10,941 bases of DNA from a virus. Taxonomy: Duplodnaviria > Heunggongvirae > Uroviricota > Caudoviricetes. Below, one piece after another: positions 1-10,941 of this stretch (within the stretch, counting starts at the first letter, position 1; each line of letters begins with the position of its first letter). Location of the stretch: IMG/VR virus record IMGVR_UViG_2563366831_000008; one strand, written 5' to 3'. The notes under the pieces were generated by a model, which was not told the DNA's origin, did not search any database, and saw nothing but the letters and a program-made list of their open reading frames with translations. A program made the translations under genes and the position numbers.

Positions 1-1164
1 TTACGCCTTCTTTATATCCTCCATAATTCCAGAGTGGGACATATTTGGGACATTATCACCAAAAATGTCGTCTATTTTCCTCGCATGCTCTGTCAAATGA
101 TTAGGCGCAAGGTGAGCATACCTACGAACCATTTCTATGGACTCCCATCCGCCCATTTCCTGAAGCACTGATAATGGGACGCCTGACTGAATCAGCCAGC
201 TTGCCCAGGTGTGTCTGAGGTCATGGAAACGGAAATCTTCAATTCCTGCACGACGACAAGCTGATAGCCATGATGTCTTGCTGTCGATGCGCATCTTCCT
301 GACCGCAGGCGTTGATGTTCCATCTGCTCGCTTAGCCGCCTTGGTATGTACAAACACCCATTTGTGATGCTTGCCTATTTGATCACGCAACACTTTACAG
401 GCGGTATCGTTCAGCGCCACACCAATGGCGCGGTTTGATTTGCTCTCTTCTGGATTCACCCAGGCAACTCGTCGCTGCATGTCGATTTGTTGCCATTCCA
501 GATTTATGATGTTCGACTTTCTCAGACCAGTTGCCAGCGCAAACTTGACGACAGATTTCAGTGGTTCGGGGCACTCATCAATAAGGCGTTTTGCTTCCTC
601 CTTTTCCAGCCATCTGACTCGCTTGTTTCTGACCGCTGGTATCTTGATGACAGGCGCTTTTTCCAGCCACTTCCAGTCGCGTTCTGCAGCACGGAGAATG
701 GCCTTTATCATGGCAAGATGCTTTGCCTTTGTCTGAGTTGATACTGGCTTTGGTTCATAAACAGGCGGTTCTTTACCTTTCCTGATGGCGGCCTGAACTT
801 TCTGTTTCCATATTTCTTTCGTCTTTCTGTTATGCATTCTGCTTACAGCAGAGTAAATCTTTGCCTCCGAGATATCTTTAAGCCTTATACCCTCAAAATG
901 TTCAAGCCAGAACTCAATCCGGCTTTTATCTGAATCGAGAGATTTTTTATCAGCTTTTTCCTCAAGCCATCTTAGGCAGGCCTCTTCAAAAGTGACATCA
1001 GGTAAATCCCCTAGCTTTTCTACTCGCCAGAGTTCTGCTTTTCGCTTGTCGTGCAACTCCTGAGCTTGCCGCTTGTCCTTTGTGCCAAGAGATTCCTTAA
1101 TTCGTTTCCCGCCCGGGAGCGAATACGAGGCATACCATATTTCATTTCTGCGGAAGAGTGACAT
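1..1164 (-). CDS. int: Tyrosine recombinase / phage integrase (P22/DLP12-like, not lambda Int)
   Basis: 387-aa ORF; N-terminus [24 protein letters not shown] matches the P22/DLP12 integrase family as I recall it; C-terminal HDLRHT...RYAH catalytic region; SD GAGGAAA 4 nt before ATG at 1164. Stop codon is at the window edge, so attL lies outside the window. Confidence 0.93.
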
Positions 1165-1391
1165 TTTCTTTCCTCTGTTATGCCATCACCCGCGCTCACC
1201 TGGACAGTATGCAGCGGAGACTGAAGCGCCGCAATGCAGGCTTGCCGTGTTGTGAGGTAAGGAGATTTTGGCTTGGTTGGATCTTTACGTGTTGCCTGTA
1301 GGCGGCCTGTTCGTATCCAGTTGGTGGCGGTTGGTCTGGATATCTTAAGAAACTGACAGGCCTCATCGAGTGTGAGGCTGTATGATTCCAT
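1020..1391 (-). CDS. xis: Excisionase-like protein (Xis)
   Basis: Position immediately upstream of int; start MESYSL... at 1391 with SD GAGG about 6 nt upstream (the ORF track's start at 1421 lacks an RBS). The ORF overlaps the int start by about 145 nt, so the true 3' end is uncertain. Confidence 0.6.
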
Positions 1392-1641
1392 GGTTACCTC
1401 TGCTTTTTGAACGCATGTCACGTAACTTCTTAATGTGTTCTGCCGTTTCGATCTCTTCTGCTATCCGATCTGCATCAGCTTTATTCACAGGTTCAAAGTC
1501 ATGATTAAAGCGGAACATGCTGGCGATACATGTTCTGCCTTTTCGGATGTAGTGAACTTTGTTGTGGGTAGAACGCAGGATTTTGCAGGGAGTACCGTGG
1601 TGGTCGACGTACCAGGTGTTAGGAAAAATGATTCTGAACAT
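1363..1641 (-). CDS. Hypothetical phage protein (92 aa)
   Basis: Intact ORF with strong SD GAGGTG 5 nt before the ATG at 1641; overlaps the xis start by 29 nt, consistent with translational coupling in an early leftward operon. No recognisable domain. Confidence 0.6.
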   Translation of the reverse strand: MFRIIFPNTWYVDHHGTPCKILRSTHNKVHYIRKGRTCIASMFRFNHDFEPVNKADADRIAEEIETAEHIKKLRDMRSKSRGNHGIIQPHTR

Positions 1642-1688
1642 TTTTACACCTCAGTTGGACGATGTTGAAATTTGCTGCTTTGAGGCCA

Positions 1689-1907
1689 TCACAGTCCCCA
1701 TTGTTTGTTCTTAAGTTCGATCTCCTCCTGGCAACTTGCACAAGTCCGACAACCCTGAACAGCCAGGCGTCTTCGCTCATCTATCGGATCGCCACACTCA
1801 CAACAATGAGTGGCAGATACAGTCTGGTAGTTCAGACGACGCATTTTTATTGCTGTATTGCGCTGTAATTCTTCGATTTCTGATGCTGAATCAATTATGT
1901 CTGCCAT
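1689..1907 (-). CDS. DksA/TraR-family C4-type zinc-finger protein
   Basis: 72-aa ORF with CxxC-N17-CxxC (CCECGDPIDERRRLAVQGCRTCASC), typical of phage TraR-like proteins; weak SD. Confidence 0.8.
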   Translation of the reverse strand: MADIIDSASEIEELQRNTAIKMRRLNYQTVSATHCCECGDPIDERRRLAVQGCRTCASCQEEIELKNKQWGL

Positions 1908-1962
1908 CTTTCATTAATCCCTGAATTGTTGGTTAATACGCTTGAGGGTGAATGCGAATAAT

Positions 1963-1984
1963 AAAAAAGGAGCCTGTAGCTCCC
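1963..1984 (-). terminator. Rho-independent terminator candidate (minus strand)
   Basis: On the minus strand: hairpin GGAGC-tacag-GCTCC followed by TTTTTT; lies between the 2006..2287 ORF and the TraR-like gene. Confidence 0.5.
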
Positions 1985-2005
1985 TGATGATTTTGCTTTT
2001 CATGT

Positions 2006-2287
2006 TCATCGCTCCTTAAAGACGCCGTTTAACATGCCGATCGCCAGACTTAAATGAGTCGGTGTGAATCCCATCAGCGTTACCGTTTCGCGGTGCTTCT
2101 TCAGTACGCTACGGCAAATGTCATCGACGTTTTTATCCGGAAACTGCTGTCTGGCTTTTTTGATTTCAGAGTTAGCCTGACGGGCAATGCTGCGAAGGGC
2201 GTTTTCTTGCTGAGGTGTCATTGAACAAGTCCCATGTCGGCAAGCATAAGCACACAGAATATGAAGCCCGCTGCCAGAAAAATGCAT
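2006..2287 (-). CDS. Hypothetical phage protein (93 aa from ATG 2287; alternative start at 2221 gives 71 aa, MTPQQENALRS...)
   Basis: Open frame in the early leftward operon; neither candidate start has a strong SD, so the start is uncertain. Confidence 0.5.
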   Translation of the reverse strand: MHFSGSGLHILCAYACRHGTCSMTPQQENALRSIARQANSEIKKARQQFPDKNVDDICRSVLKKHRETVTLMGFTPTHLSLAIGMLNGVFKER

Positions 2288-2297
2288 TCAGTGGTTG

Positions 2298-2489
2298 TCA
2301 TACCTGGTCTCTCTCATCTGCTTCTGCTTTCGCCACCATCATTTCCAGCTTTTGTGAAAGGGATGCGGCTAACGTATGAAATTCTTCGTCTGTTTCTACT
2401 GGTATTGGCACAAACCTGACTCCAATTTGAGCGAGGCTATGTGCCATCTCGATACACGTTCTTAACTCAACAGGAGATGCTTTGTGCAT
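2298..2489 (-). CDS. Small phage protein, lambda orf61-like (63 aa)
   Basis: Same size and position as the lambda ORF upstream of orf60a, and overlaps the next ORF by 28 nt as in lambda; G-rich SD 4 nt before the ATG. Confidence 0.6.
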   Translation of the reverse strand: MHKASPVELRTCIEMAHSLAQIGVRFVPIPVETDEEFHTLAASLSQKLEMMVAKAEADERDQV

Positions 2490-2644
2490 ACAGCCCCCCG
2501 TTTATTATTTATCTCCTCAGCCAGCCGCTGTGCTTTCAGGGGATTTCTGATAACAGAAAGGCCGGGAAATACCCAGCCTCGCTTTGTAACGGAGTAGACG
2601 AAAGTGATCGCACCTACCCGGATATTATCGTGAGGATGCTTCAT
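2462..2644 (-). CDS. Small phage protein, lambda orf60a-like (60 aa)
   Basis: Protein [19 protein letters not shown]... matches my recollection of lambda orf60a; its ATG overlaps the exo stop as ATGA (2641-2644), the lambda arrangement. The ORF track start at 2650 (MAM...) is two codons further upstream. Confidence 0.7.
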
Positions 2645-3321
2645 CGCCATTGCTCCCCAAATACAAAACCAATTTCAGCCAGTGCCTCGTCCATTTTTTC
2701 GATGAACTCCGGCACCATCTCGTCAAAACTCGCCATGTACTTTTCATCCCGCTCAACCACGACATAATGCAGGCCTTCACGCTTCATACGCGGGTCATAG
2801 TTGGCAAAGTACCAGGCATCTTTTCGCGTCACCCACATGCTGTACTGCACCTGGGCCATGTAAGCCGATTTTATTGCCTCGAAACCACCGAGCCGGAATT
2901 TCATGAAATCCCGGGAGGTAAACGGGCATTTCAGTTCCAGGCCGTTGCCGTCACTGCATAAACCATCGGGAGAGCAGGCGGTGCGCATACTTTCGTCGCG
3001 ATAGATGATCGGGGATTCAGTAATATTCACGCCGGAAGTGAATTCAAACAGGGTTCTGGCGTCGTTCTCGTACTGTTTTCCCCAGGCCAGCGCCTTAGCA
3101 TTAACTTCCGGAGCCACACCGGTGCAAACCTCAGCCAGCAGGGTGTGGAAGTAGGACATTTTCATGTCAGGCCACTTCTTTCCTGAGCGGGGCTTTGCTA
3201 TCACGTTGTGAACTTCTGAAGCGGTGATGACGCCGAGCCGTAATTTGTGCCATGCATCATCCCCCTGTTCGACAGCTCTCACGTCGATCCCGGTACGCTG
3301 CAGGATAATGTCCGGTATCAT
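2641..3321 (-). CDS. exo: Lambda exonuclease (Red-alpha), 5'-3' dsDNA exonuclease
   Basis: 226-aa protein essentially identical over its length to lambda Exo as I recall it ([40 protein letters not shown]...GFVFGEQWR); overlaps the bet stop by 4 nt. Confidence 0.97.
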
Positions 3322-4103
3322 GCTGCCACCTTCTGCTCAGTGGCTTTCTGTTTCAGGAATCCAAGAGCTTTCACTGCTTCGGCCTGTGTCAGTTCTGACG
3401 ATGCGCGAATGTCGCGGCGAAATATCTGGGAACAGAGCGGCAATAAGTCGTCATCCCATGTTTTATCCAGGGCGATCAGCAGAGTGTTAATCTCCTGCAT
3501 GGTTTCATCGTTAACCGGAGTGATGTCGCGTTCCGGCTGACGTTCTGCAGTGTATGCGGTATTTTCGACAATGCGCTCGGCTTCATCCTTGTCATAGATA
3601 CCAGCAAATCCGAAGGCGAGACGGGCACACTGAATCATAGCTTTATGCCGTAACATCCGTTTGGGATGCGACTGCCACGGCCCCGTGATTTCTCTGCCTT
3701 CGCGAGTTTTGAATGGTTCGCGGCGGCATTCATCCATCCACTCGGTAACGCAGATCGGATGATTACGGTCCTTGCGGTAAATCCGGCATGTACATGATTC
3801 ATTGTCCTGCTCAAAGTCCATGCCATCAAATTGCTGGTTTTCATTGATGATACGGGACCAGCCATCAACGCCCACCACCGGAACGATGCCGTTCTGCTTG
3901 TCAGGGAAGGCGTAAATTTCTTTCGTCCACGGATTAAGGCCGTACTGGTTGGCGACGATCAACAATGCGATGAACTGCGCATCGCTGGCATCACCTTTAA
4001 ATGCCGTCTGGCGAAGAGTGGTGATCAGTTCCTGTGGGTCGACAGAATCCATGCCGACACGTTCAGCCAGCTTCCCAGCCAGCGTTGCGAGTGCTGTACT
4101 CAT
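3318..4103 (-). CDS. bet: Lambda Bet (Red-beta) single-strand annealing protein
   Basis: 261-aa protein matching lambda Bet ([37 protein letters not shown]...), same length and context. Confidence 0.97.
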
Positions 4104-4108
4104 CCGTT

Positions 4109-4405
4109 TTATACCTCTGAATCAATATCAACCTGGTGGTGAGCAATGGTTTCAACCATGTACCGGATGTGTTCTGCCATGCGCTCCTGAAACTCAACAT
4201 CGTCATCAAACGCACGGGTAATGGCTTTTTTACTGGCCCCGTGGCGTTGTAAATGATCGATGCAGAGTGATTCAAACAGGTGCTGGGGCAGGCCTTTTTC
4301 CATGTCGTCTGCCAGTTCTGCCTCTTTCTCTTCACGGGCGATCTGCTGGTAGTGACGCGCCCAGCTCTGAGCCTCAAGACGATCCTGAATGTAATAAGCG
4401 TTCAT
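4109..4405 (-). CDS. gam: Gam, RecBCD inhibitor (98-aa GamS form)
   Basis: [60 protein letters not shown]... matches lambda Gam from the internal start codon onward. Confidence 0.93.
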
Positions 4406-4478
4406 GGCTGAACTCCTGAAATAGCTGTGAAAATATCGCCCGCGAAATGCCGGGCTGATTAGGAAAACAGGAAAGGGG

Positions 4479-4622
4479 TTAGTGAATGCTTTTGCTTGAT
4501 CTCAGTTTCAGTATTAATATCCATTTTTTATAAGCGTCGACGGCTTCACGAAACATCTTTTCATCGCCAATAAAAGTGGCGATAGTGAATTTAGTCTGGA
4601 TAGCCATAAGTGTTTGATCCAT
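4479..4622 (-). CDS. kil: Kil (host cell-division/FtsZ inhibitor), 47 aa
   Basis: [47 protein letters not shown] matches lambda Kil; it is the C-terminal 47 codons of the 89-aa track ORF; overlaps cIII by 32 nt as in lambda. Confidence 0.9.
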
Positions 4623-4755
4623 TCTTTGGGACTCCTGGCTGATTAAGCATGTCGATAAGGCGTTTCCATCCGTCACGTAATTTACGGGTGATTCGTTCAA
4701 GTAAAGATTCGGAAGGGCAGCCAGCAACAGGCCACCCTGCAATGGCATATTGCAT
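4591..4755 (-). CDS. cIII: CIII (FtsH/HflB inhibitor that stabilises CII), 54 aa
   Basis: [54 protein letters not shown] is near-identical to lambda CIII; SD AAGGAG upstream of the ATG at 4755. Confidence 0.93.
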   Translation of the reverse strand: MQYAIAGWPVAGCPSESLLERITRKLRDGWKRLIDMLNQPGVPKNGSNTYGYPD

Positions 4756-4816
4756 GGTGTGCTCCTTATTTATACATAACGAAAAACGCCTCGAGTGAAG
4801 CGTTATTGGTATGCGG

Positions 4817-4835
4817 TAAAACCGCACTCAGGCGG
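4817..4835 (-). terminator. Hairpin / possible attenuator at the ea10 stop codon
   Basis: Minus strand CCGCCTGAGTGCGG followed by TTTTA; the ea10 stop lies in the loop. Lambda has regulated RNA structure upstream of cIII; the function here is uncertain. Confidence 0.3.
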
Positions 4836-5196
4836 CCTTGATAGTCATATCATCTGAATCAAATATTCCTGATGTATCGATATCGGTAATTCTTATTCCT
4901 TCACTACCATCCATTGGAGGCCATCCTTCCTGACCATTTCCATCATCCCAGTCGAACTCACAAACAACACCATATGCATTTAAGTCTTTCGAAATTGCTA
5001 TAAGCAGAGCATGTTGCGCCAGCATGATTAATACAGCATTTAATAAAGAGCCGTGTTTATTGAGTCGGTATTCAGAGTCTGACCAGAAATTATTAATCTG
5101 GTGAAGTTTTTCCTCTGTCATTACGTCATGGTCGATTTCAATTTCTATTGATGCTTTCCAGTCGTAATCAATGATGTATTTTTTGATGTTTGACAT
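4828..5196 (-). CDS. ea10: Ea10-like early protein (122 aa)
   Basis: Size (122 aa) and position (immediately pL-proximal to cIII) equal lambda ea10; assignment is by context and size, as I do not recall the lambda Ea10 sequence. Confidence 0.7.
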   Translation of the reverse strand: MSNIKKYIIDYDWKASIEIEIDHDVMTEEKLHQINNFWSDSEYRLNKHGSLLNAVLIMLAQHALLIAISKDLNAYGVVCEFDWDDGNGQEGWPPMDGSEGIRITDIDTSGIFDSDDMTIKAA

Positions 5197-5361
5197 CTAT
5201 TCATATCCTCATAGATAAAAAATCGCCTTCACACTGGAGGGCAAAGAAGATTTCCAATAATCAGAACAAGTCGGCTCCTGTTTAGTTACGAGCGACATTG
5301 CTCCGTGTATTCACTCGTTGGAATGAATACACAGTGCAGTGTTTATTCTGTTGTTTATGCC

Positions 5362-5387
5362 AAAAATAAAGGCCGACTATGCGGCCT
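5362..5387 (-). terminator. Rho-independent terminator candidate (minus strand)
   Basis: Minus-strand hairpin AGGCCG-catagt-CGGCCT followed by TTTATTTTT, 5 nt downstream of the stop of the 5392..5841 ORF. Confidence 0.55.
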
Positions 5388-5391
5388 GAAA

Positions 5392-5841
5392 TTACTTAAC
5401 CAATGATGCTGCATATTCGATAAGGTAAAGCTTTGGGGCCAGCCAAATTTTTAACCAAGTCATATTGGTTACTACACCAATAATAAAAATCCCCCACAGA
5501 GTCAAAACTCCAACCAATGGCATGATAAGAAGATTAATATCACCTTTGCTATCCCAAACCATTGTCGGCCTGTATTTGGGATTTCCTTTCTCCCATGAAT
5601 ATCCTTCATCACCGATTTTACCTGTCTCAACTCTTTGGCACTGCTTCTTCATAAACCAGAAAACCAGTGGGATTGTTAGAATGGCCATTAATGTTTTAAT
5701 CAGACTGTCAACCATATTCCATAGCAGCAACTGATGAACAACATCAGGAATCTGTGCCTGGCTAAATGAAACAGCCGCGTCTATTCCATTACTGGCTTTT
5801 TGCAGTAGTTCTACGAGAATCTTGTTTGCTTGTTCTTCCAT
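5392..5841 (-). CDS. Predicted inner-membrane protein (149 aa), possible superinfection-exclusion-type accessory protein
   Basis: Strong SD AAGGTGA before the ATG at 5841; at least two long hydrophobic stretches (LMAILTIPLVFWFM; LLIMPLVGVLTLWGIFIIGVV); flanked by terminators; sits where lambda carries ral/sieB. Confidence 0.7.
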   Translation of the reverse strand: MEEQANKILVELLQKASNGIDAAVSFSQAQIPDVVHQLLLWNMVDSLIKTLMAILTIPLVFWFMKKQCQRVETGKIGDEGYSWEKGNPKYRPTMVWDSKGDINLLIMPLVGVLTLWGIFIIGVVTNMTWLKIWLAPKLYLIEYAASLVK

Positions 5842-5882
5842 ATATCACCTTGATTGTAATAAGCATGAAATTATTTACGGAC

Positions 5883-5911
5883 AAAAATAAAGGCCACCAT
5901 CAGGCAGCCTT
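5883..5911 (-). terminator. Rho-independent terminator candidate (minus strand)
   Basis: Minus-strand hairpin GGCTGCC-tgat-GGTGGCC (7 bp including two G-U pairs) followed by TTTATTTTT. Its 5' flank (CAAAAATAAAGGCC) repeats that of the 5362..5387 terminator. Confidence 0.5.
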
Positions 5912-5980
5912 GTAGTTCTGTTTACCAAGTTCTCTGGCAATCATTGTCGTCGTTCGTATTGTCTACACCATTGATTCTTA

Positions 5981-6067
5981 TCAATAGTCGTAGTCATACG
6001 GATAGTCCTGGTATTGTTCCATCACATCCTGAGGATGATCTTCGAACTCTTCAAATTCTTCTTCCAT
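5981..6067 (-). CDS. Candidate micro-ORF encoding a 28-aa highly acidic, Tyr-rich peptide (MEEEFEEFEDHPQDVMEQYQDYPYDYDY)
   Basis: ATG at 6067 preceded by SD GAGGTGA; 12 of 28 residues are D/E and none K/R; lies 58 nt downstream of N, just before a terminator. Purely sequence-based; could be non-coding. Confidence 0.35.
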   Translation of the reverse strand: MEEEFEEFEDHPQDVMEQYQDYPYDYDY

Positions 6068-6125
6068 ATCTCACCTCAAATAAGTGGTTTGCTGCCTAAT
6101 TTCATTTTCTGGCGACCAACACAAG

Positions 6126-6398
6126 TCATCTTGCTGTCAGTTGTTTGGATTTCCGGTAGCCTGCCGCGTAAAGAGCTACGTTTGGAAGACAAGTTGAGCC
6201 TTCATATTTTCTGGTCAGCGTTGTCAGTGTTATTACTTCTGCTCTCATTGCTGGTTTGCGCTTGCATTGCAAGACCACTCGTGAAGGGGTTGGCCTGTGT
6301 AGCTTGTCGGAGCTGATCGCCTTCTGACTTTGCAGATTTGCGCGACGAGCTCTACGGCGAGAAGCTGCGGTGCCTTTAAATTCTGTTTTTCTGGACAT
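6126..6398 (-). CDS. N: N-type transcription antitermination protein (90 aa), of the 933W/H-19B/phi21 type rather than lambda
   Basis: N-terminal arginine-rich motif MSRKTEFKGTAASRRRARRANLQ and C-terminal ...CLPNVALYAAGYRKSKQLTAR, which resembles Stx-phage N proteins as I recall them; SD GGGAGG before the ATG at 6398 (track ORF start at 6482 has no RBS); first gene after pL/nutL. Confidence 0.85.
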   Translation of the reverse strand: MSRKTEFKGTAASRRRARRANLQSQKAISSDKLHRPTPSRVVLQCKRKPAMRAEVITLTTLTRKYEGSTCLPNVALYAAGYRKSKQLTAR

Positions 6399-6496
6399 AG
6401 ATTCCTCCCGAATAAACTTTGGCGATGCAATCTCGAAGCTCCTCCTGAGACGGTTGCTTCGGCATTGCATCCCACAGCTCATGTGGTTGGGTGATC

Positions 6497-6542
6497 TGGC
6501 TTTTCAGCCACGTAGTCGAGAGTTCGACGTTGTTTAAAGAGC
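6497..6542 (-). promoter_or_regulatory. nutL site: boxA (6530..6542) and boxB hairpin (6497..6510)
   Basis: Minus strand reads GCTCTTTAAACAA (boxA-like, cf. CGCTCTTTAACAA) and, 19 nt downstream, TGGCT-GAAA-AGCCA (5-bp stem with GAAA loop), in the N leader between pL and N. Confidence 0.6.
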
Positions 6543-6588
6543 CTGCCAGTCTGTTCCGTTTGGCTTCCAGCGTCCTGCTGACGGTTAA

Positions 6589-6617
6589 ATAGTACGATAT
6601 GTACTTTATTGTGTCAA
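6589..6617 (-). promoter_or_regulatory. pL promoter candidate
   Basis: Minus strand TTGACA (plus 6612-6617), 17-nt spacer, TACTAT (plus 6589-6594); correctly placed upstream of nutL and N. Confidence 0.5.
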
Positions 6618-6673
6618 TACGATTTGCTCTAAAATGGGGTGATTTTTTATAACACTTTGTATTTAATAGTGTT
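6591..6673. promoter_or_regulatory. OL operator region (candidate repressor-binding palindromes)
   Basis: AGTAC-gatat-GTACT (6591-6605) overlaps the pL -10; AACACT-N11-AGTGTT at 6651-6673. A related motif AGTACatattGTAT occurs in OR (8323-8336). Confidence 0.4.
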
Positions 6674-6808
6674 GTTTTTTAGCGTGGGTGTATTGCCTCG
6701 GCGATGTAAGGAGAGATCAGAATTGCGTGGTTTAGTGAGTTGTATCTATTTATTTTTCAATAAATACATTTGGTTATGTGTCTTTAGGTGGGGGCGTGAG
6801 GCAAAGAA

Positions 6809-6830
6809 AACCCGGCGCTGAGGCCGGGTT
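6809..6830. terminator. Bidirectional rho-independent terminator (tIMM-like)
   Basis: AAAA-CCCGGC-gctgag-GCCGGG-TTTT: 6-bp GC stem with a U-tract on either strand, directly after the stop of the HicA-like gene. Confidence 0.6.
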
Positions 6831-7115
6831 TTAGCTAATGATTTGGAATCCTATATCCTCAAGCGTTGCGTCACCTCTGCATAACGCATGAAAGTGACGA
6901 GCTTTCAGTCCAGCTTGCTTAGCCATGGATTTTATTAAATCTCTGGAGAATGGGGCGTGATGCTTATCAACTGTAACCACCCATTTTCCTTTACTGTTCT
7001 TGAGAACCCACTGTTCGTGAGAGGTTCCTGTTTTAGGTTTCATTTCAAACCCCATTTTCTTAAGTCCCCTGATTACCTCGTCGTATTTCAAAGGAGTAAG
7101 CTTTTTCAAGAACAT
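6831..7115 (-). CDS. HicA-family (YcfA-like) putative mRNA-interferase toxin, 94 aa, with a C-terminal extension of roughly 25 aa
   Basis: Core KYDEVIRGLKKMGFEMKPKTGTSHEQWVLKNSKGKWVVTVDKHHAPFSRDLIKSMAKQAGLK fits the HicA pattern (GxxH motif, basic dsRBD-like fold signature); start is 11 nt after the upstream HicB-like stop. Family call is from motif memory, not a search. Confidence 0.7.
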   Translation of the reverse strand: MFLKKLTPLKYDEVIRGLKKMGFEMKPKTGTSHEQWVLKNSKGKWVVTVDKHHAPFSRDLIKSMAKQAGLKARHFHALCRGDATLEDIGFQIIS

Positions 7116-7126
7116 GTAATGTAACC

Positions 7127-7423
7127 CTAAGCATGAGCATCACAAGGCTCAGCAAAGAGTTTTGCTTCACCTCGTTTTCTGACAAAAACCTGAAATGCAA
7201 TTACCCAATACTTAAGCCACATAGATAAAGGTGCTTTCCGACTTAGTAGTTGTTTTGCATATTCCGGCTCTGATAGCGCTTCAGTGAAAAAATCTTTAAT
7301 CTGCTCATCCAGTTTGTTTACAGCTTCTTTCATAGTATCTGCTTGCGCTGCCAATGACAGGTCTAAACATGCAGCTACGTAAACGCCGTTCTGCTGGTAG
7401 GCCATGCAACGTAAGGTTTTCAT
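7127..7423 (-). CDS. HicB-like (RNase-H-fold antitoxin domain) protein, 98 aa, without a recognisable DNA-binding domain
   Basis: N-terminal GVYVAACLDLSLAAQADTMKEAVNKLDEQI resembles the HicB N-domain signature (beta-strand, then xGxT/EEA helix); strong SD GAGGAGA 6 nt before the ATG at 7423; located upstream of the HicA-like gene. Confidence 0.6.
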   Translation of the reverse strand: MKTLRCMAYQQNGVYVAACLDLSLAAQADTMKEAVNKLDEQIKDFFTEALSEPEYAKQLLSRKAPLSMWLKYWVIAFQVFVRKRGEAKLFAEPCDAHA

Positions 7424-7595
7424 TTTATCTCTCCTCAGAAGCTCTCATGTAGGAGCTTAAGTGAAGTTTACCCTATAGGTAATTTTAGACAACCCCAAAA
7501 TACCTATATTTTGTAAATGTCAATACATTAGCAGCGAATACCTTCCAACTTATCCACAAGCCAGAGATTGATAGCTTAAAAAACAAACAGAGAAA

Positions 7596-8255
7596 TTACC
7601 CAAACGTCTCTTCTGGCCACTGGCTGGCGATAACTTTCCCCACAACGGAACAACTCTCATTGCATGGGATCATTGGATATTGCGGGTTTAGTGGCTGTAG
7701 AAACACCTGACCGCTATCCCTGATCAGTTTCTTGAAGGTAAACTCATCACCACCAAGTCTGGCTATGCAGAAATCACCTGGCTCAACAGCCTGCTCAGGG
7801 TCAACCAGAATTAACATCCCGTCAGGAAAACTAGGTTTGGAACCTGTTGGGGCGGTCATCGAGTTACCTTCAACCTCAAGCCAGAATGCAGAGTCACTGG
7901 CTTTTTTGGTTGTGCTTACCAATCTCTCCGCATCGCCTTTGGTAAAGGTTCTGAGTTCTGGAGAGAACATCCCAGCCTGAACATGAGAAAAAACAGGGTA
8001 CTCATATTGTTTTTTAACTGGGGCCGATGAGTATTCGCCAACAGGTGAAAATGTCCCGTCGTGGTTGAATGATATGTTATCAATACCAAGGTATTTAAAC
8101 ACCACACCAATATCACTAAGAGATGGATGACGAGATCCGCGCAACCAGTGTCCAATTCCACCCTGCGTCATACCTAGCTCTTCGGCTAACTTCTCTTGAG
8201 TTATGCCGAGCTCTTTCATTCTGGATCTAGCCAGTTCATACCATTTCATTTTCAT
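7596..8255 (-). CDS. cI: CI prophage repressor (HTH N-domain plus S24 LexA-like autocleavage C-domain); chimeric
   Basis: From ...[28 protein letters not shown]... to the C-terminus the protein matches lambda CI; the N-terminal ~100 aa (HTH ...[20 protein letters not shown]...) is unrelated to lambda CI. Start is uncertain: the track ORF begins at a TTG (8297), the first ATG is 8291; 8255 or 8249 (MKMKW/MKW) fit the AAGGA SD best. Confidence 0.88.
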
Positions 8256-8366
8256 GTCCTTATTATTACGCTCTGTATTGCAACCATCCATGCACAATGT
8301 GTATTTTTTCTTGCATTAAAAAAGTACATATTGTATTTTTTTCTTCATGGTTACTATGGAGGGCAT
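8256..8366. promoter_or_regulatory. OR region: divergent pRM/pR promoters and operators
   Basis: pR candidate: TTGCAT (8311-8316), 17-nt spacer, TATTTT (8334-8339), about 25 nt upstream of the cro ATG. Palindromic elements GTATTTTTT-N9-AAAAAAGTAC (8301-8327) and AGTACatattGTAT (8323-8336). pRM not pinned down. Confidence 0.55.
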
Positions 8367-8582
8367 ATGAGCAACCTACGAAAATATCGAGAGTCACTGA
8401 ATATCTCTCAAACAACACTTGCTAAGGCAGTTGGATGCACACAGGGAGCTATCGGACATTGGGAATCTGGTCGTCGCTTCCCAGACCTTAAAACATGCCG
8501 TGCTCTTGTTGCGTGTCTAAACAAGTTAGGCGCAAAAGTAAGTCTTGATGACGTGTTCCCGCCGGAGCACAAAGCCGCTTAA
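8367..8582 (+). CDS. cro: Cro-type repressor (71 aa, HTH)
   Basis: MSNLRKYRESLNISQTTLAKAVGCTQGAIGHWESGRRFPDL... with an HTH; SD GGAGG immediately upstream of the ATG at 8367; divergent from cI. The 128-aa track ORF from 8196 is an upstream extension without an RBS. Confidence 0.85.
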   Translation: MSNLRKYRESLNISQTTLAKAVGCTQGAIGHWESGRRFPDLKTCRALVACLNKLGAKVSLDDVFPPEHKAA

Positions 8583-8590
8583 TAAGCGGA

Positions 8591-8636
8591 GCCGCTCTTT
8601 GTAACAACGGACATTCGTCCTACGTCGCTGAAAAGC
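8591..8636 (+). promoter_or_regulatory. nutR site: boxA (8591..8605) and boxB hairpin (8623..8636)
   Basis: CGCTCTTTGTAACAA (boxA-like), then TCGCT-GAAA-AGCGA hairpin 17 nt downstream. A possible further hairpin ATGCGT-ttcc-ACGCAT at 8667-8682 may belong to a tR1-like region. Confidence 0.6.
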
Positions 8637-8723
8637 GAGCCCCAAGATATCTGACCAACTAAGGCCATATGCGTTTCCACGCATACCTTTCAACTAACTA
8701 TTCACTATTGGAAATCTTAAGAA

Positions 8724-9020
8724 ATGGAACAAACAAATTACAGCAAACTATCACAGCGCGACGTTGATCGCGCAGAAACAGATTTACTTATCAACCTGTC
8801 AACGCTTACTCAGCGCGGTCTGGCAAAGATGATTGGCTGTCATGAATCGAAGATAAGCAGAACAGACTGGAGGTTTATAGCTTCGGTCTTGTGTGCTTTT
8901 GGCATGGCATCAGACCTCAGTCCGATTAGCAGAGCTTTTAAGTATGCGCTTGATGAAATCACCAATAAAAAACGCCCGGCGGCAACCGAGCGTTCTGAAC
9001 AAATCCAGATGGAGTTCTGA
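8724..9020 (+). CDS. cII: CII transcriptional activator (98 aa); chimeric
   Basis: C-terminal ...NKKRPAATERSEQIQMEF matches lambda CII; the N-terminal two thirds (MEQTNYSKLSQRDVDRAETDLLINL...) differ from lambda. Confidence 0.88.
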   Translation: MEQTNYSKLSQRDVDRAETDLLINLSTLTQRGLAKMIGCHESKISRTDWRFIASVLCAFGMASDLSPISRAFKYALDEITNKKRPAATERSEQIQMEF

Positions 9021-9044
9021 GGTCATTACTGGATCTATCAACAG
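8966..9044 (-). ncRNA. oop: oop-like antisense RNA (terminator hairpin inside the cII 3' end)
   Basis: Minus-strand hairpin CGCUCGG-uugccg-CCGGGCG followed by UUUUUUAUU (plus 8966-8993) matches the lambda oop terminator; the flanking cII 3' end and O 5' end appear lambda-like. The 5' end is inferred from the lambda length of about 77 nt. Confidence 0.5.
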
Positions 9045-9052
9045 GAGTCATT

Positions 9053-9952
9053 ATGACAAACACAGCAAAAATACTCAACTTCGGCAGAGGTAACTTTGCC
9101 GGACAGGAGCGTAATGTGGCAGATCTCGATGATGGTTACGCCAGACTATCAAATATGCTGCTTGAGGCTTATTCGGGCGCAGATCTGACCAAGCGACAGT
9201 TTAAAGTGCTGCTTGCCATTCTGCGTAAAACCTATGGGTGGAATAAACCAATGGACAGAATCACCGATTCTCAACTTAGCGAGATTACAAAGTTACCCGT
9301 CAAACGGTGCAATGAAGCCAAGTTAGAACTCGTCAGAATGAATATTATCAAGCAGCAAGGCGGCATGTTTGGACCAAATAAAAACATCTCAGAATGGTGT
9401 ATCCCTCAAAACGAGGGAAAATCCCCTAAAACGAGGGATAAAACATCCCTCAAATTGGGGGATTGCTATCCCTCAAAACAGGGGGACACAAAAGACACTA
9501 TTACAAAAGAAAAAAGAAAAGATTATTCGTCAGAGAATTCTGGCGAATCCTCTGACCAGCCAGAAAACGACCTTTCTGTGGTGAAACCGGATGCTGCAAT
9601 TCAGAGCGGCAGCAAGTGGGGGACAGCAGAAGACCTGACCGCCGCAGAGTGGATGTTTGACATGGTGAAGACTATCGCACCATCAGCCAGAAAACCGAAT
9701 TTTGCTGGGTGGGCTAACGATATCCGCCTGATGCGTGAACGTGACGGACGTAACCATCGCGACATGTGTGTACTGTTCCGCTGGGCATGCCAGGACAACT
9801 TCTGGTCCGGTAACGTGCTTAGCCCGGCCAAACTCCGCGACAAGTGGACCCAGCTCGAAATCAACCGTAACAAGCAACAGGCAGTCGTGACAGCCAGCAA
9901 ACCAAAACTCGACCTGACAAACACAGACTGGATTTACGGGGTGGATCTATGA
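9053..9952 (+). CDS. O: Lambda O replication initiator protein
   Basis: 299-aa protein matching lambda O (MTNTAKILNFGRGNFAGQERNVADLDDGYARLSNMLLEAYSG...); SD AGGAG upstream; contains the ori iterons. Confidence 0.97.
   Translation: MTNTAKILNFGRGNFAGQERNVADLDDGYARLSNMLLEAYSGADLTKRQFKVLLAILRKTYGWNKPMDRITDSQLSEITKLPVKRCNEAKLELVRMNIIKQQGGMFGPNKNISEWCIPQNEGKSPKTRDKTSLKLGDCYPSKQGDTKDTITKEKRKDYSSENSGESSDQPENDLSVVKPDAAIQSGSKWGTAEDLTAAEWMFDMVKTIAPSARKPNFAGWANDIRLMRERDGRNHRDMCVLFRWACQDNFWSGNVLSPAKLRDKWTQLEINRNKQQAVVTASKPKLDLTNTDWIYGVDL
9401..9530. repeat. Lambda-type replication origin: four ~19-20 bp iterons plus AT-rich region
   Basis: Direct repeats ATCCCTCAAAACGAGGGAAA (9401), ATCCCCTAAAACGAGGGATA (9421), CATCCCTCAAATTGGGGGATT (9444), ATCCCTCAAAACAGGGGGAC (9468), followed by the A-rich tract ACAAAAGAAAAAAGAAAAGATTATT. 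Confidence 0.9.
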
Positions 9953-10614
9953 AAAACATCGCCGCACAGATGGTTGACTTTGACCGTGAGCAGATGCGTC
10001 GGATCGCCAACAACATGCCGGAACAGTACGACGAAAAGCCGCAGGTACAGCAGGTAGCGCAGATCATCAACGGTGTGTTCAGCCAGTTACTGGCAACTTT
10101 CCCGGCGAGTCTGGCTAACCGTGACCAGAACGAACTGAACGAAATCCGTCGCCAGTGGGTTCTGGCTTTTCGGGAAAACGGGATCACCACGATGGAACAG
10201 GTTAACGCAGGAATGCGCGTAGCCCGTCGGCAGAATCGACCATTTCTGCCATCACCCGGGCAGTTTGTTGCATGGTGCCGGGAAGAAGCATCCGTTATCG
10301 CCGGACTGCCAAACGTCAGCGAGCTGGTTGATATGGTTTACGAGTATTGCCGGAAGCGAGGCCTGTATCCGGATGCGGAGTCTTATCCGTGGAAATCAAA
10401 CGCGCACTACTGGCTGGTTACCAACCTGTATCAGAACATGCGGGCCAATGCGCTTACTGATGCGGAATTACGGCGCAAGGCTGCCGATGAACTGACCTGT
10501 ATGACAGCGCGAATTAACCGTGGTGAGACGATACCTGAACCAGTAAAACAACTTCCTGTTATGGGCGGTAGACCTCTAAATCGTGCACAGGCTCTGGCGA
10601 AGATCGCAGAATGA
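9949..10614 (+). CDS. P: Lambda P (DnaB helicase loader), C-terminally truncated by an IS insertion (221 aa versus 233 in lambda)
   Basis: Protein matches lambda P up to ...RAQALAKIAE; the ATG overlaps the O stop as ATGA; the reading frame ends at a TGA supplied by the first bases of the IS terminal repeat (10612-10614). Confidence 0.9.
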   Translation: MKNIAAQMVDFDREQMRRIANNMPEQYDEKPQVQQVAQIINGVFSQLLATFPASLANRDQNELNEIRRQWVLAFRENGITTMEQVNAGMRVARRQNRPFLPSPGQFVAWCREEASVIAGLPNVSELVDMVYEYCRKRGLYPDAESYPWKSNAHYWLVTNLYQNMRANALTDAELRRKAADELTCMTARINRGETIPEPVKQLPVMGGRPLNRAQALAKIAE

Positions 10615-10941
10615 ACCGCCCCGGGTTTCCTGGAGAGTGTTTTATCTGTGAACTCAGGCTGCCAGATCATCGTTTCCGATGGAAGCATAATAAGCTTTTT
10701 CTGCTTCTGCCGGAGGAGTATGGCCCAGCCTTTCCAGCAATCGTCGATTGTTATACCAGTCCACCCACGTGAGTGTGGCCAGTTCCACTTCTGCACGGTT
10801 TTTCCAGCTCTTACGGTGTATTACCTCCGCTTTGTAAAGACCATTGATGCTCTCCGCCATCGCGTTGTCATACGAGTCGCCTGTACTTCCTGTTGATGCC
10901 AGTAATCCGGCTTCCTTAAGCCGCTGTGTGTAGGCCAGCGA
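10612..10941 (-). mobile_element. IS3-family insertion sequence (IS629-like), right end; element continues beyond the window
   Basis: Terminal sequence TGAACCGCCCCGGGTTTCCTGGAGAG begins exactly where similarity to lambda P stops, and resembles the IS629 terminal inverted repeat as I recall it; a transposase 3' end follows on the minus strand. Confidence 0.8.
10654..10941 (-). CDS. IS3-family transposase (OrfB, DDE integrase domain), C-terminal fragment; 5' part lies outside the window
   Basis: ...MAESINGLYKAEVIHRKSWKNRAEVELATLTWVDWYNNRRLLERLGHTPPAEAEKAYYAS is the conserved C-terminal region of IS3-family OrfB; the frame is open to the window edge; stop is 42 nt inside the IS end. Confidence 0.8.
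   Translation of the reverse strand, partial: SLAYTQRLKEAGLLASTGSTGDSYDNAMAESINGLYKAEVIHRKSWKNRAEVELATLTWVDWYNNRRLLERLGHTPPAEAEKAYYASIGNDDLAA

Follow-up and report, generated by a model that had tools for sequence, protein, structure and literature searches.

An IS629 end closes replication gene P at codon 221 in a lambda-like Escherichia coli prophage

The closest described counterpart of the protein considered here is the helicase loader P of phage lambda (PDB 6BBM, 8V9T). In the 2.66 Å DnaB-lambda P structure, P is described as having four domains, the last of which (domain IV, residues 193-233) is a C-terminal "lasso" or "grappling hook" (PMC12661323). The lasso helix packs against two adjacent DnaB subunits, on the DH helix of the one and the LH helix of the other, forming a three-helix bundle of about 1400 Å2 that shears the DH-LH interface during ring opening, and the contacts named there are those of P Ala215, Lys218, and Ile219 with DnaB Trp294, of Ile222 and Phe226 with Met301, and of Phe226 with Leu305 (PMC12661323). 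In the B6P6 intermediate order extends to all six lassos, including those whose P is otherwise disordered, and in the authors' view stable binding to DnaB probably begins with the lasso; domain III has the larger DnaB interface at about 1600 Å2 (PMC12661323). Other reports describe that residues 103-233 of lambda P suffice for robust DnaB binding (PMC6391071) and that P with a 66-residue tag on its C-terminus still complements a Pam phage (PMC3640518). Because that fusion complements, the extreme C-terminus of P tolerates change.

IS629 is placed in the IS51 group of the IS3 family of insertion sequences, and IS3411 is an isoform of it. A survey of this element gives target duplications of 3-4 bp, lists IS1203 as another isoform, and names prophages as the preferred location, holding 62% of the copies in O157:H7 (PMC3271280); some IS629 copies are named IS1203 by RefSeq. 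Insertions into P of resident lambdoid prophages have precedents. In the replicative-killing survivor 566a, a spontaneous P::IS2 insertion at lambda bp 39690, at about codon 37, abolishes P function; P is toxic, and its loss can benefit the host; this insertion is one of several mutations with which cells outlive the induction of a defective lambda prophage (PMC4926192). We also found an independent IS1203/IS629 element near codon 89 of P in another prophage, one that adjoins emrE and ybcK, in many O157:H7 genomes including SS52 (L014:1501-3515). That copy has the same orientation as the one described below and likewise falls early in the gene and destroys the protein. In other genomes the element lies just downstream of P or in ren (L001:3762-4975), and the P-ren region has thus been hit repeatedly by IS1203/IS629. 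The event described here is therefore of a kind that is already known, namely routine prophage decay, and IS629 in lambdoid E. coli prophages is abundant and well documented. Within the portions of the literature that our search covered, we found no description of an argU-site lambdoid prophage with IS629 at codon 221 of its P gene.

The window, by which we mean the whole 10,941-nucleotide stretch of DNA that we analysed (IMG/VR record IMGVR_UViG_2563366831_000008), holds a lambda-type early region with int, exo, bet, gam, kil, cIII, N, a HicA/HicB-like pair, cI, cro, cII, O, and P. It starts exactly at the stop codon of intD, with the intD side at 1-1164 on the minus strand. When the entire window was compared by megablast with 5,426 complete E. 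coli genomes, five prophages were listed with 100.0% identity over positions 1-10611, and in each listed record the match ends at 10611. The prophage of E. coli MY1-8 (NZ_CP122517.1) is 100% identical over this same interval and diverges exactly at 10612. This intact relative adjoins a tRNA-Arg gene (L002:3909-3985; L012) and has full lysis, head, and tail modules, the last two lambda-like; it also carries a porin gene, essD-rrrD-rzpD, and a gene for an Iss (Bor-like) lipoprotein. The IS-bearing element is a lambda-like prophage beside the argU tRNA gene, at the intD/DLP12 site of E. coli. Because the lambda-type early region is complete and the MY1-8 relative has full modules, the prophage was probably complete before the IS arrived.

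The integration site (argU, intD) is that of DLP12 in E. coli K-12, and the right arm of the relatives shares with DLP12 rusA, ylcG, quuD, a porin gene at the nmpC position, essD, rrrD, and rzpD. DLP12 itself is heavily deleted. In contrast to DLP12, the window prophage keeps a complete lambda-like early left arm together with the immunity and replication region, and the MY1-8 relative keeps full head and tail genes. A prophage of the MY1-8 type looks like the complete counterpart of the K-12 DLP12 remnant. Two further features of the early region deserve mention. A HicA-family toxin gene (6831-7115) and a DUF1902/HicB-like gene (7127-7423), both on the minus strand, lie between N and the cI-like repressor gene, so that the pair (6831-7423) sits roughly where lambda has rexAB. 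In the identical MY1-8 sequence, the RefSeq annotation includes an incomplete HTH (xis-like) pseudogene and, just downstream of N, a hypothetical gene with a frameshift, corresponding to 1326-1391 and 6376-6598 on the minus strand of the window; this is minor decay older than the IS insertion.

At its right end the window carries the P gene, the start of which overlaps the stop of the upstream O-type gene (9053-9952). Both this overlap and the operon order cro-cII-O-P-ren-nin are as in lambda. The predicted protein belongs by sequence to the lambda P family (Pfam PF06992, Phage_lambda_P, at E=8e-62 and 208 bits, where the cutoff is 26), and its reading frame is 97% identical to lambda P until it ends with ...NRAQALAKIAE. 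Read directly, the window gives ...GGRPLNRAQALAKIAE for the last P residues and then TGA at 10612-10614, which is formed by the first three bases of the IS629 end. As the IS end starts at 10612 with this in-frame stop codon, P ends at Glu221, inside the lasso at its C-terminus (193-233, domain IV), which is therefore incomplete. The coordinates of these features are collected in Table 1.

Table 1. Features at the junction of gene P and IS629 (positions in the window)
Feature	Position	Strand	Evidence
Truncated replication gene P (lambda-type DnaB helicase loader)	9949-10614	+	221 codons and IS-derived TGA; without residues 222-233
GAA target triplet, left copy of the 3-bp duplication, codon 221 (Glu)	10609-10611	.	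MY1-8 empty site ...gcaGAA^attaaagc; right junction in L004 ...GGTTCA/GAA/attaaagc
IS629 copy, first 330 bp; the window ends inside it	10612-10941	-	330/330 identical to annotated IS629
IS629 terminal inverted repeat, OrfB-proximal end	10612-10636	.	14/14 and 23/25 complementary to the other end (L003 copy)
Transposase orfB, 3' end: last 95 codons and stop (10654-10656)	10654-10941	-	Translation; Pfam rve_3 E=1.4e-12, rve_2 E=2.6e-7

The uninterrupted allele in MY1-8 fixes what the insertion removed. The MY1-8 P gene is 702 bp long, and its product of 233 aa is the same as that of the window through Glu221 and then runs on with IKAKFGLKGASV to its stop, the C-terminus of the full protein reading AEIKAKFGLKGASV. 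In nucleotides, the empty site is ...atcgcaGAA^attaaagctaag... Because the MY1-8 allele continues in this way, the truncation amounts to exactly 12 residues and the boundary lies between positions 10611 and 10612. Over its 233 residues, this complete allele shares 97.4% identity with lambda P (J02459, 39582-40280), and it matches the "Helicase loader" chain of PDB 8v9t over residues 1-233 (E=1e-150). A length of 233 aa is shared by most of the listed members of the 90% protein cluster of P, and close homologues sampled from sequenced phages (lambda, 933W, 21, SfI, and Stx1a phages) all align through residue 233; 152 phage records carry P homologues at 95% identity or more. A sequence-only reading of this DNA had already stated that similarity to lambda P breaks off after ...ALAKIAE, that the IS gives P its stop codon, and that 12 residues are lost, and the translation and the MY1-8 allele agree with all of this. 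The same reading had opened the element at 10560, which is merely margin; the element itself stands, with its edge at the boundary given above.

From position 10612 on, the sequence reads TGAACCGCCCCGGGTTTCCTGGAG... and opens with the terminal repeat TGAACCGCCCCGGG, as had been predicted. A single IS end lies within the window, and the other was taken from the full copy in the L003 contig described below; the two form an imperfect repeat of the 5'-TG...CA-3' type, with 14 of 14 positions matching at the tip and 23 of 25 over 25 bp. Our reference was the copy in LC567828.1, which its depositors annotated as "IS3 family IS629" and which is 1310 bp long with the target duplication TAA. All 330 bases of the window from 10612 to 10941 are identical to it, and the full L003 copy agrees at 1302 of 1310 positions (99.4%), bearing out the earlier assignment to IS629. 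The 95 OrfB residues encoded on the minus strand end in ...YYASIGNDDLAA and carry the integrase-core families rve_3 and rve_2. The window holds this last part of OrfB alone, and the two-gene organisation is seen in L003, where orfA encodes 108 aa (HTH_Tnp_1) and orfB 295 aa (HTH_21 and rve); RefSeq annotates related copies with a "programmed frameshift" and an AL1L pseudoknot. The window ends at base 330 of the IS, and the length of 1310 bp and the target duplication (GAA/GAA) were read from L003 and L004, respectively. With its terminal repeat, its length, its two genes, and a 3-bp duplication, the element itself is no different from IS629. Megablast matches to IS3-family elements begin at window position 10611/10612 in thousands of E. 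coli records, and those in the phage collection begin at the same place and, if annotated by their depositors, carry the label "insertion sequence: IS3 family IS629". The interval 10612-10941 was matched in 4145 of 5426 complete E. coli genomes, where it is annotated as "IS3 family transposase", and the number of IS629 places per genome has a median of 3 and reaches 50. In the window the transposase genes run antisense to the pR transcript, which covers O and P.

The exact P-IS junction was absent from the 5,426 complete E. coli genomes, from the INPHARED phages, and from the GTDB species representatives; in the nearest records with P as well as IS629, the element occupies ren, the space between P and ren, or a point near codon 89 of P. 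An exact-sequence look-up placed the 221-aa product on 17 contigs, and among the places listed at least nine samples, nine of nine, have the same junction, coming from both NCBI assemblies and Logan read-set assemblies. Most of these contigs end 29-110 bp into the IS, as expected, since short-read assemblies break at repeats. Two extend further. The first, a 387-kb scaffold (GCA_000350725.1, here L004), agrees with the window at every base as far as a scaffold gap within the IS. Beyond the gap come the other IS end, GAA, and ATTAAAGCTAAG..., so that the far end abuts GAA and ATTAAAGC, the rest of P. The two junctions are thus GAA/TGAACC on the left and GGTTCA/GAA on the right, and this 3-bp target duplication marks a clean transposition. 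Downstream, 4,003 of 4,003 bases are the same as in MY1-8, covering 'P, a ren-like gene, ninB, dam, ninE, ninX, rusA, and so on. The sequence-only reading had expected the other IS end, a 3-bp duplication, and the remainder of P to lie beyond the window, and all three were found in L004 with flanks identical to the window. The gap itself (L004:10759-13003) consists of 2,245 N, compared with the 877 bp of IS629 that are missing, and may be a poor estimate of size or may contain extra sequence.

The second, a 75-kb contig (GCA_946299395.1, here L003), holds the whole IS and leads elsewhere. Its far IS end (L003:10664-13733) abuts 'hyxB, a 5'-truncated autotransporter gene, followed by ykgH-ykgGFE-rclR-rclA, and not GAA-'P. 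This right flank is identical at 8,693 of 8,693 bases to the MY1-8 flank of an IS629 copy between truncated hyxA and hyxB (L021:22376-25535, corresponding to MY1-8 3652375-3655534), which lies 253 kb from the P site in inverted relative orientation. The IS can recombine homologously with other IS629 copies, and recombination between these two inverted ones would invert the 253-kb segment and give a P'-IS629-'hyxB junction, with int through P' to one side and 'P-ren through Q, together with the lysis and structural genes, to the other; because int and P' would be separated from the remainder, the prophage could not be excised as a unit. From this one junction we infer either an IS629-IS629 inversion that split the prophage or an assembler mis-join across the 1.3-kb repeat. 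In MY1-8 the hyxA'/'hyxB copy is 1,400 bp long instead of 1,310 (L021:22376-23775), with about 90 extra bases near the OrfB-proximal end that divide the BLAST match into two pieces, and the truncation of both genes at this site indicates an IS-associated deletion.

Taken together, we regard it as very likely that a 1310-bp IS629 element of the IS3 family transposed into the GAA triplet at codon 221 of P in an argU-site lambda-like prophage, truncating P. The last 12 residues (IKAKFGLKGASV) would thereby have been displaced to the far side of the IS. We infer that the insertion is evolutionarily recent, because its flanks match the uninterrupted prophage exactly. The opposite view, that a 221-aa P is a natural short form of the loader and that the similarity to IS629 is incidental, could draw on a second 221-aa P sequence in the protein collection (P0011). 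We read eight of its contigs, and in all six places shown the gene is cut by the contig end and reads ...GCAGAAAT, which is the intact allele with no stop. As the listed cluster members are mostly 233 aa long, the close homologues from sequenced phages (including lambda, 933W, 21, and SfI) are all of this length with no natural 221-aa P among them, an allele identical up to 10611 runs on for 12 more codons, and the sequence after 10611 is 100% IS629, we give a natural short variant practically no credence. P0011 likewise offers nothing for an insertion hot spot at this codon, as the six places shown stop at the contig end, at P nucleotide 664/665, within intact GAAAT. These six contigs (L015-L020, last 60 bases each) come from different assemblers and prophage backgrounds, and all end at this nucleotide of intact P, two bases beyond the point where the IS sits in the window. 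Their shared end suggests that co-resident lambdoid prophages branch here, with a mosaic boundary at the P tail/ren, and such contig breaks give rise to spurious "221-aa partial P" database entries. An assembly artefact, in which a prophage contig was joined to a repeated IS, might be suspected from the many IS629 places per genome and from the absence of the junction in complete E. coli RefSeq genomes and GTDB species representatives. It is nevertheless very improbable, as nine independently assembled samples share the junction, each reaching 29-110 bp or more into the IS, and a chimera would not yield the matching right junction of L004 with its GAA duplication. More weight is due to the possibility that the IS in the window is itself the breakpoint of a 253-kb IS629-mediated inversion as in L003, in which case the prophage would be split and the truncation of P would be secondary. 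The P'-IS629-'hyxB-ykgH-ykgGFE-rclR-rclA arrangement, the flank identical to the MY1-8 hyx copy, and the inverted orientation of the two copies all speak for it. The window, however, differs from both L003 and L005 at positions 6627 and 8309 and shows no difference from L004, in whose lineage the insertion is clean and the downstream prophage intact, and the join in L003 could be an assembly error across the repeat. Flank identity therefore favours the simple insertion of L004 as the state of the genome from which the window came, and we consider an inversion there unlikely, though well short of negligible.

With a simple insertion as the preferred reading, the question is what the truncated protein can do. 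The residues lost, 222-233, are the distal half of the lasso helix with which lambda P ends, the half that binds at the DnaB DH/LH nexus, which agrees with the earlier statement that the P C-terminus takes part in the interaction with DnaB, as the structure report describes (lasso 193-233, with Ile222 and Phe226 contacting the DH helix; PMC12661323). The truncated P retains Ala215, Lys218, and Ile219 and would keep domains I-III as well as the proximal half of the lasso helix, lacking Ile222, Phe226, and the rest. This loss would be predicted to weaken capture and opening of the DnaB ring, so that replication of the oriLambda type after induction would be reduced or abolished. A replication defect of P(1-221) is plausible, as Ile222 and Phe226 pack against DnaB, and we think a substantial loss of P function likely. 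Because 12 terminal residues alone are removed, the outcome is less certain than in the P::IS2 and codon 89 cases. Transcription may be affected as well: with its 1.3 kb placed antisense in the pR operon, after P and before ren-nin-Q, the IS may lower expression of the late regulator. On the plus strand, a consensus-based terminator scan found a single terminator-like site in the terminal repeat, a weak hairpin of 5 bp with a T-run, a count no higher than in shuffled sequence, and N-mediated antitermination could carry pR transcription through the IS. Such read-through, together with the retained domains and half-helix and the tolerated C-terminal tag (PMC3640518), would suit a truncation that is functionally neutral or merely hypomorphic, in a prophage that still replicates; partial activity of P is possible, since the tag is tolerated and the interface of domain III is larger than that of the lasso. 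Against this, residues 222-233 are retained in all close homologues from viable phages, and Ile222 and Phe226 are named contacts of the bundle that pries the DH-LH interface of DnaB apart, made by the segment described as the likely first stable binder (PMC12661323), and we therefore hold a neutral or mild effect to be unlikely. In the portions of the literature that our search covered, we found the tolerated C-terminal tag and an N-terminal deletion, and no published test of a deletion of P 222-233. More speculatively, and in our opinion improbable, the truncation could be a selected, attenuated allele, in which DnaB binding is too weak for P-lethality or replicative killing upon spontaneous derepression. 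It would then stabilise an otherwise complete prophage, while the IS629 copy seeds large inversions, over the 253 kb to the hyx locus, by which the prophage halves are locked in place, and P(1-221) would be a natural separation-of-function lasso mutant.

The value of this finding lies mainly in annotation. The 221-aa "replication protein P" entries in databases (ELC23504.1, EOU37985.1, and others) represent an IS-truncated, pseudogene-like allele and not a variant loader, and the prophage should be scored as probably replication-defective. Apart from this, there are two modest points of biological interest. One is the IS629-mediated inversion-type junction in the sister lineage, and large IS629-mediated rearrangements could have a breakpoint at this IS copy. 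The other is the allele itself, in which the distal half of the lambda P lasso helix is naturally deleted and which could serve to test the recent structural model of DnaB ring opening.
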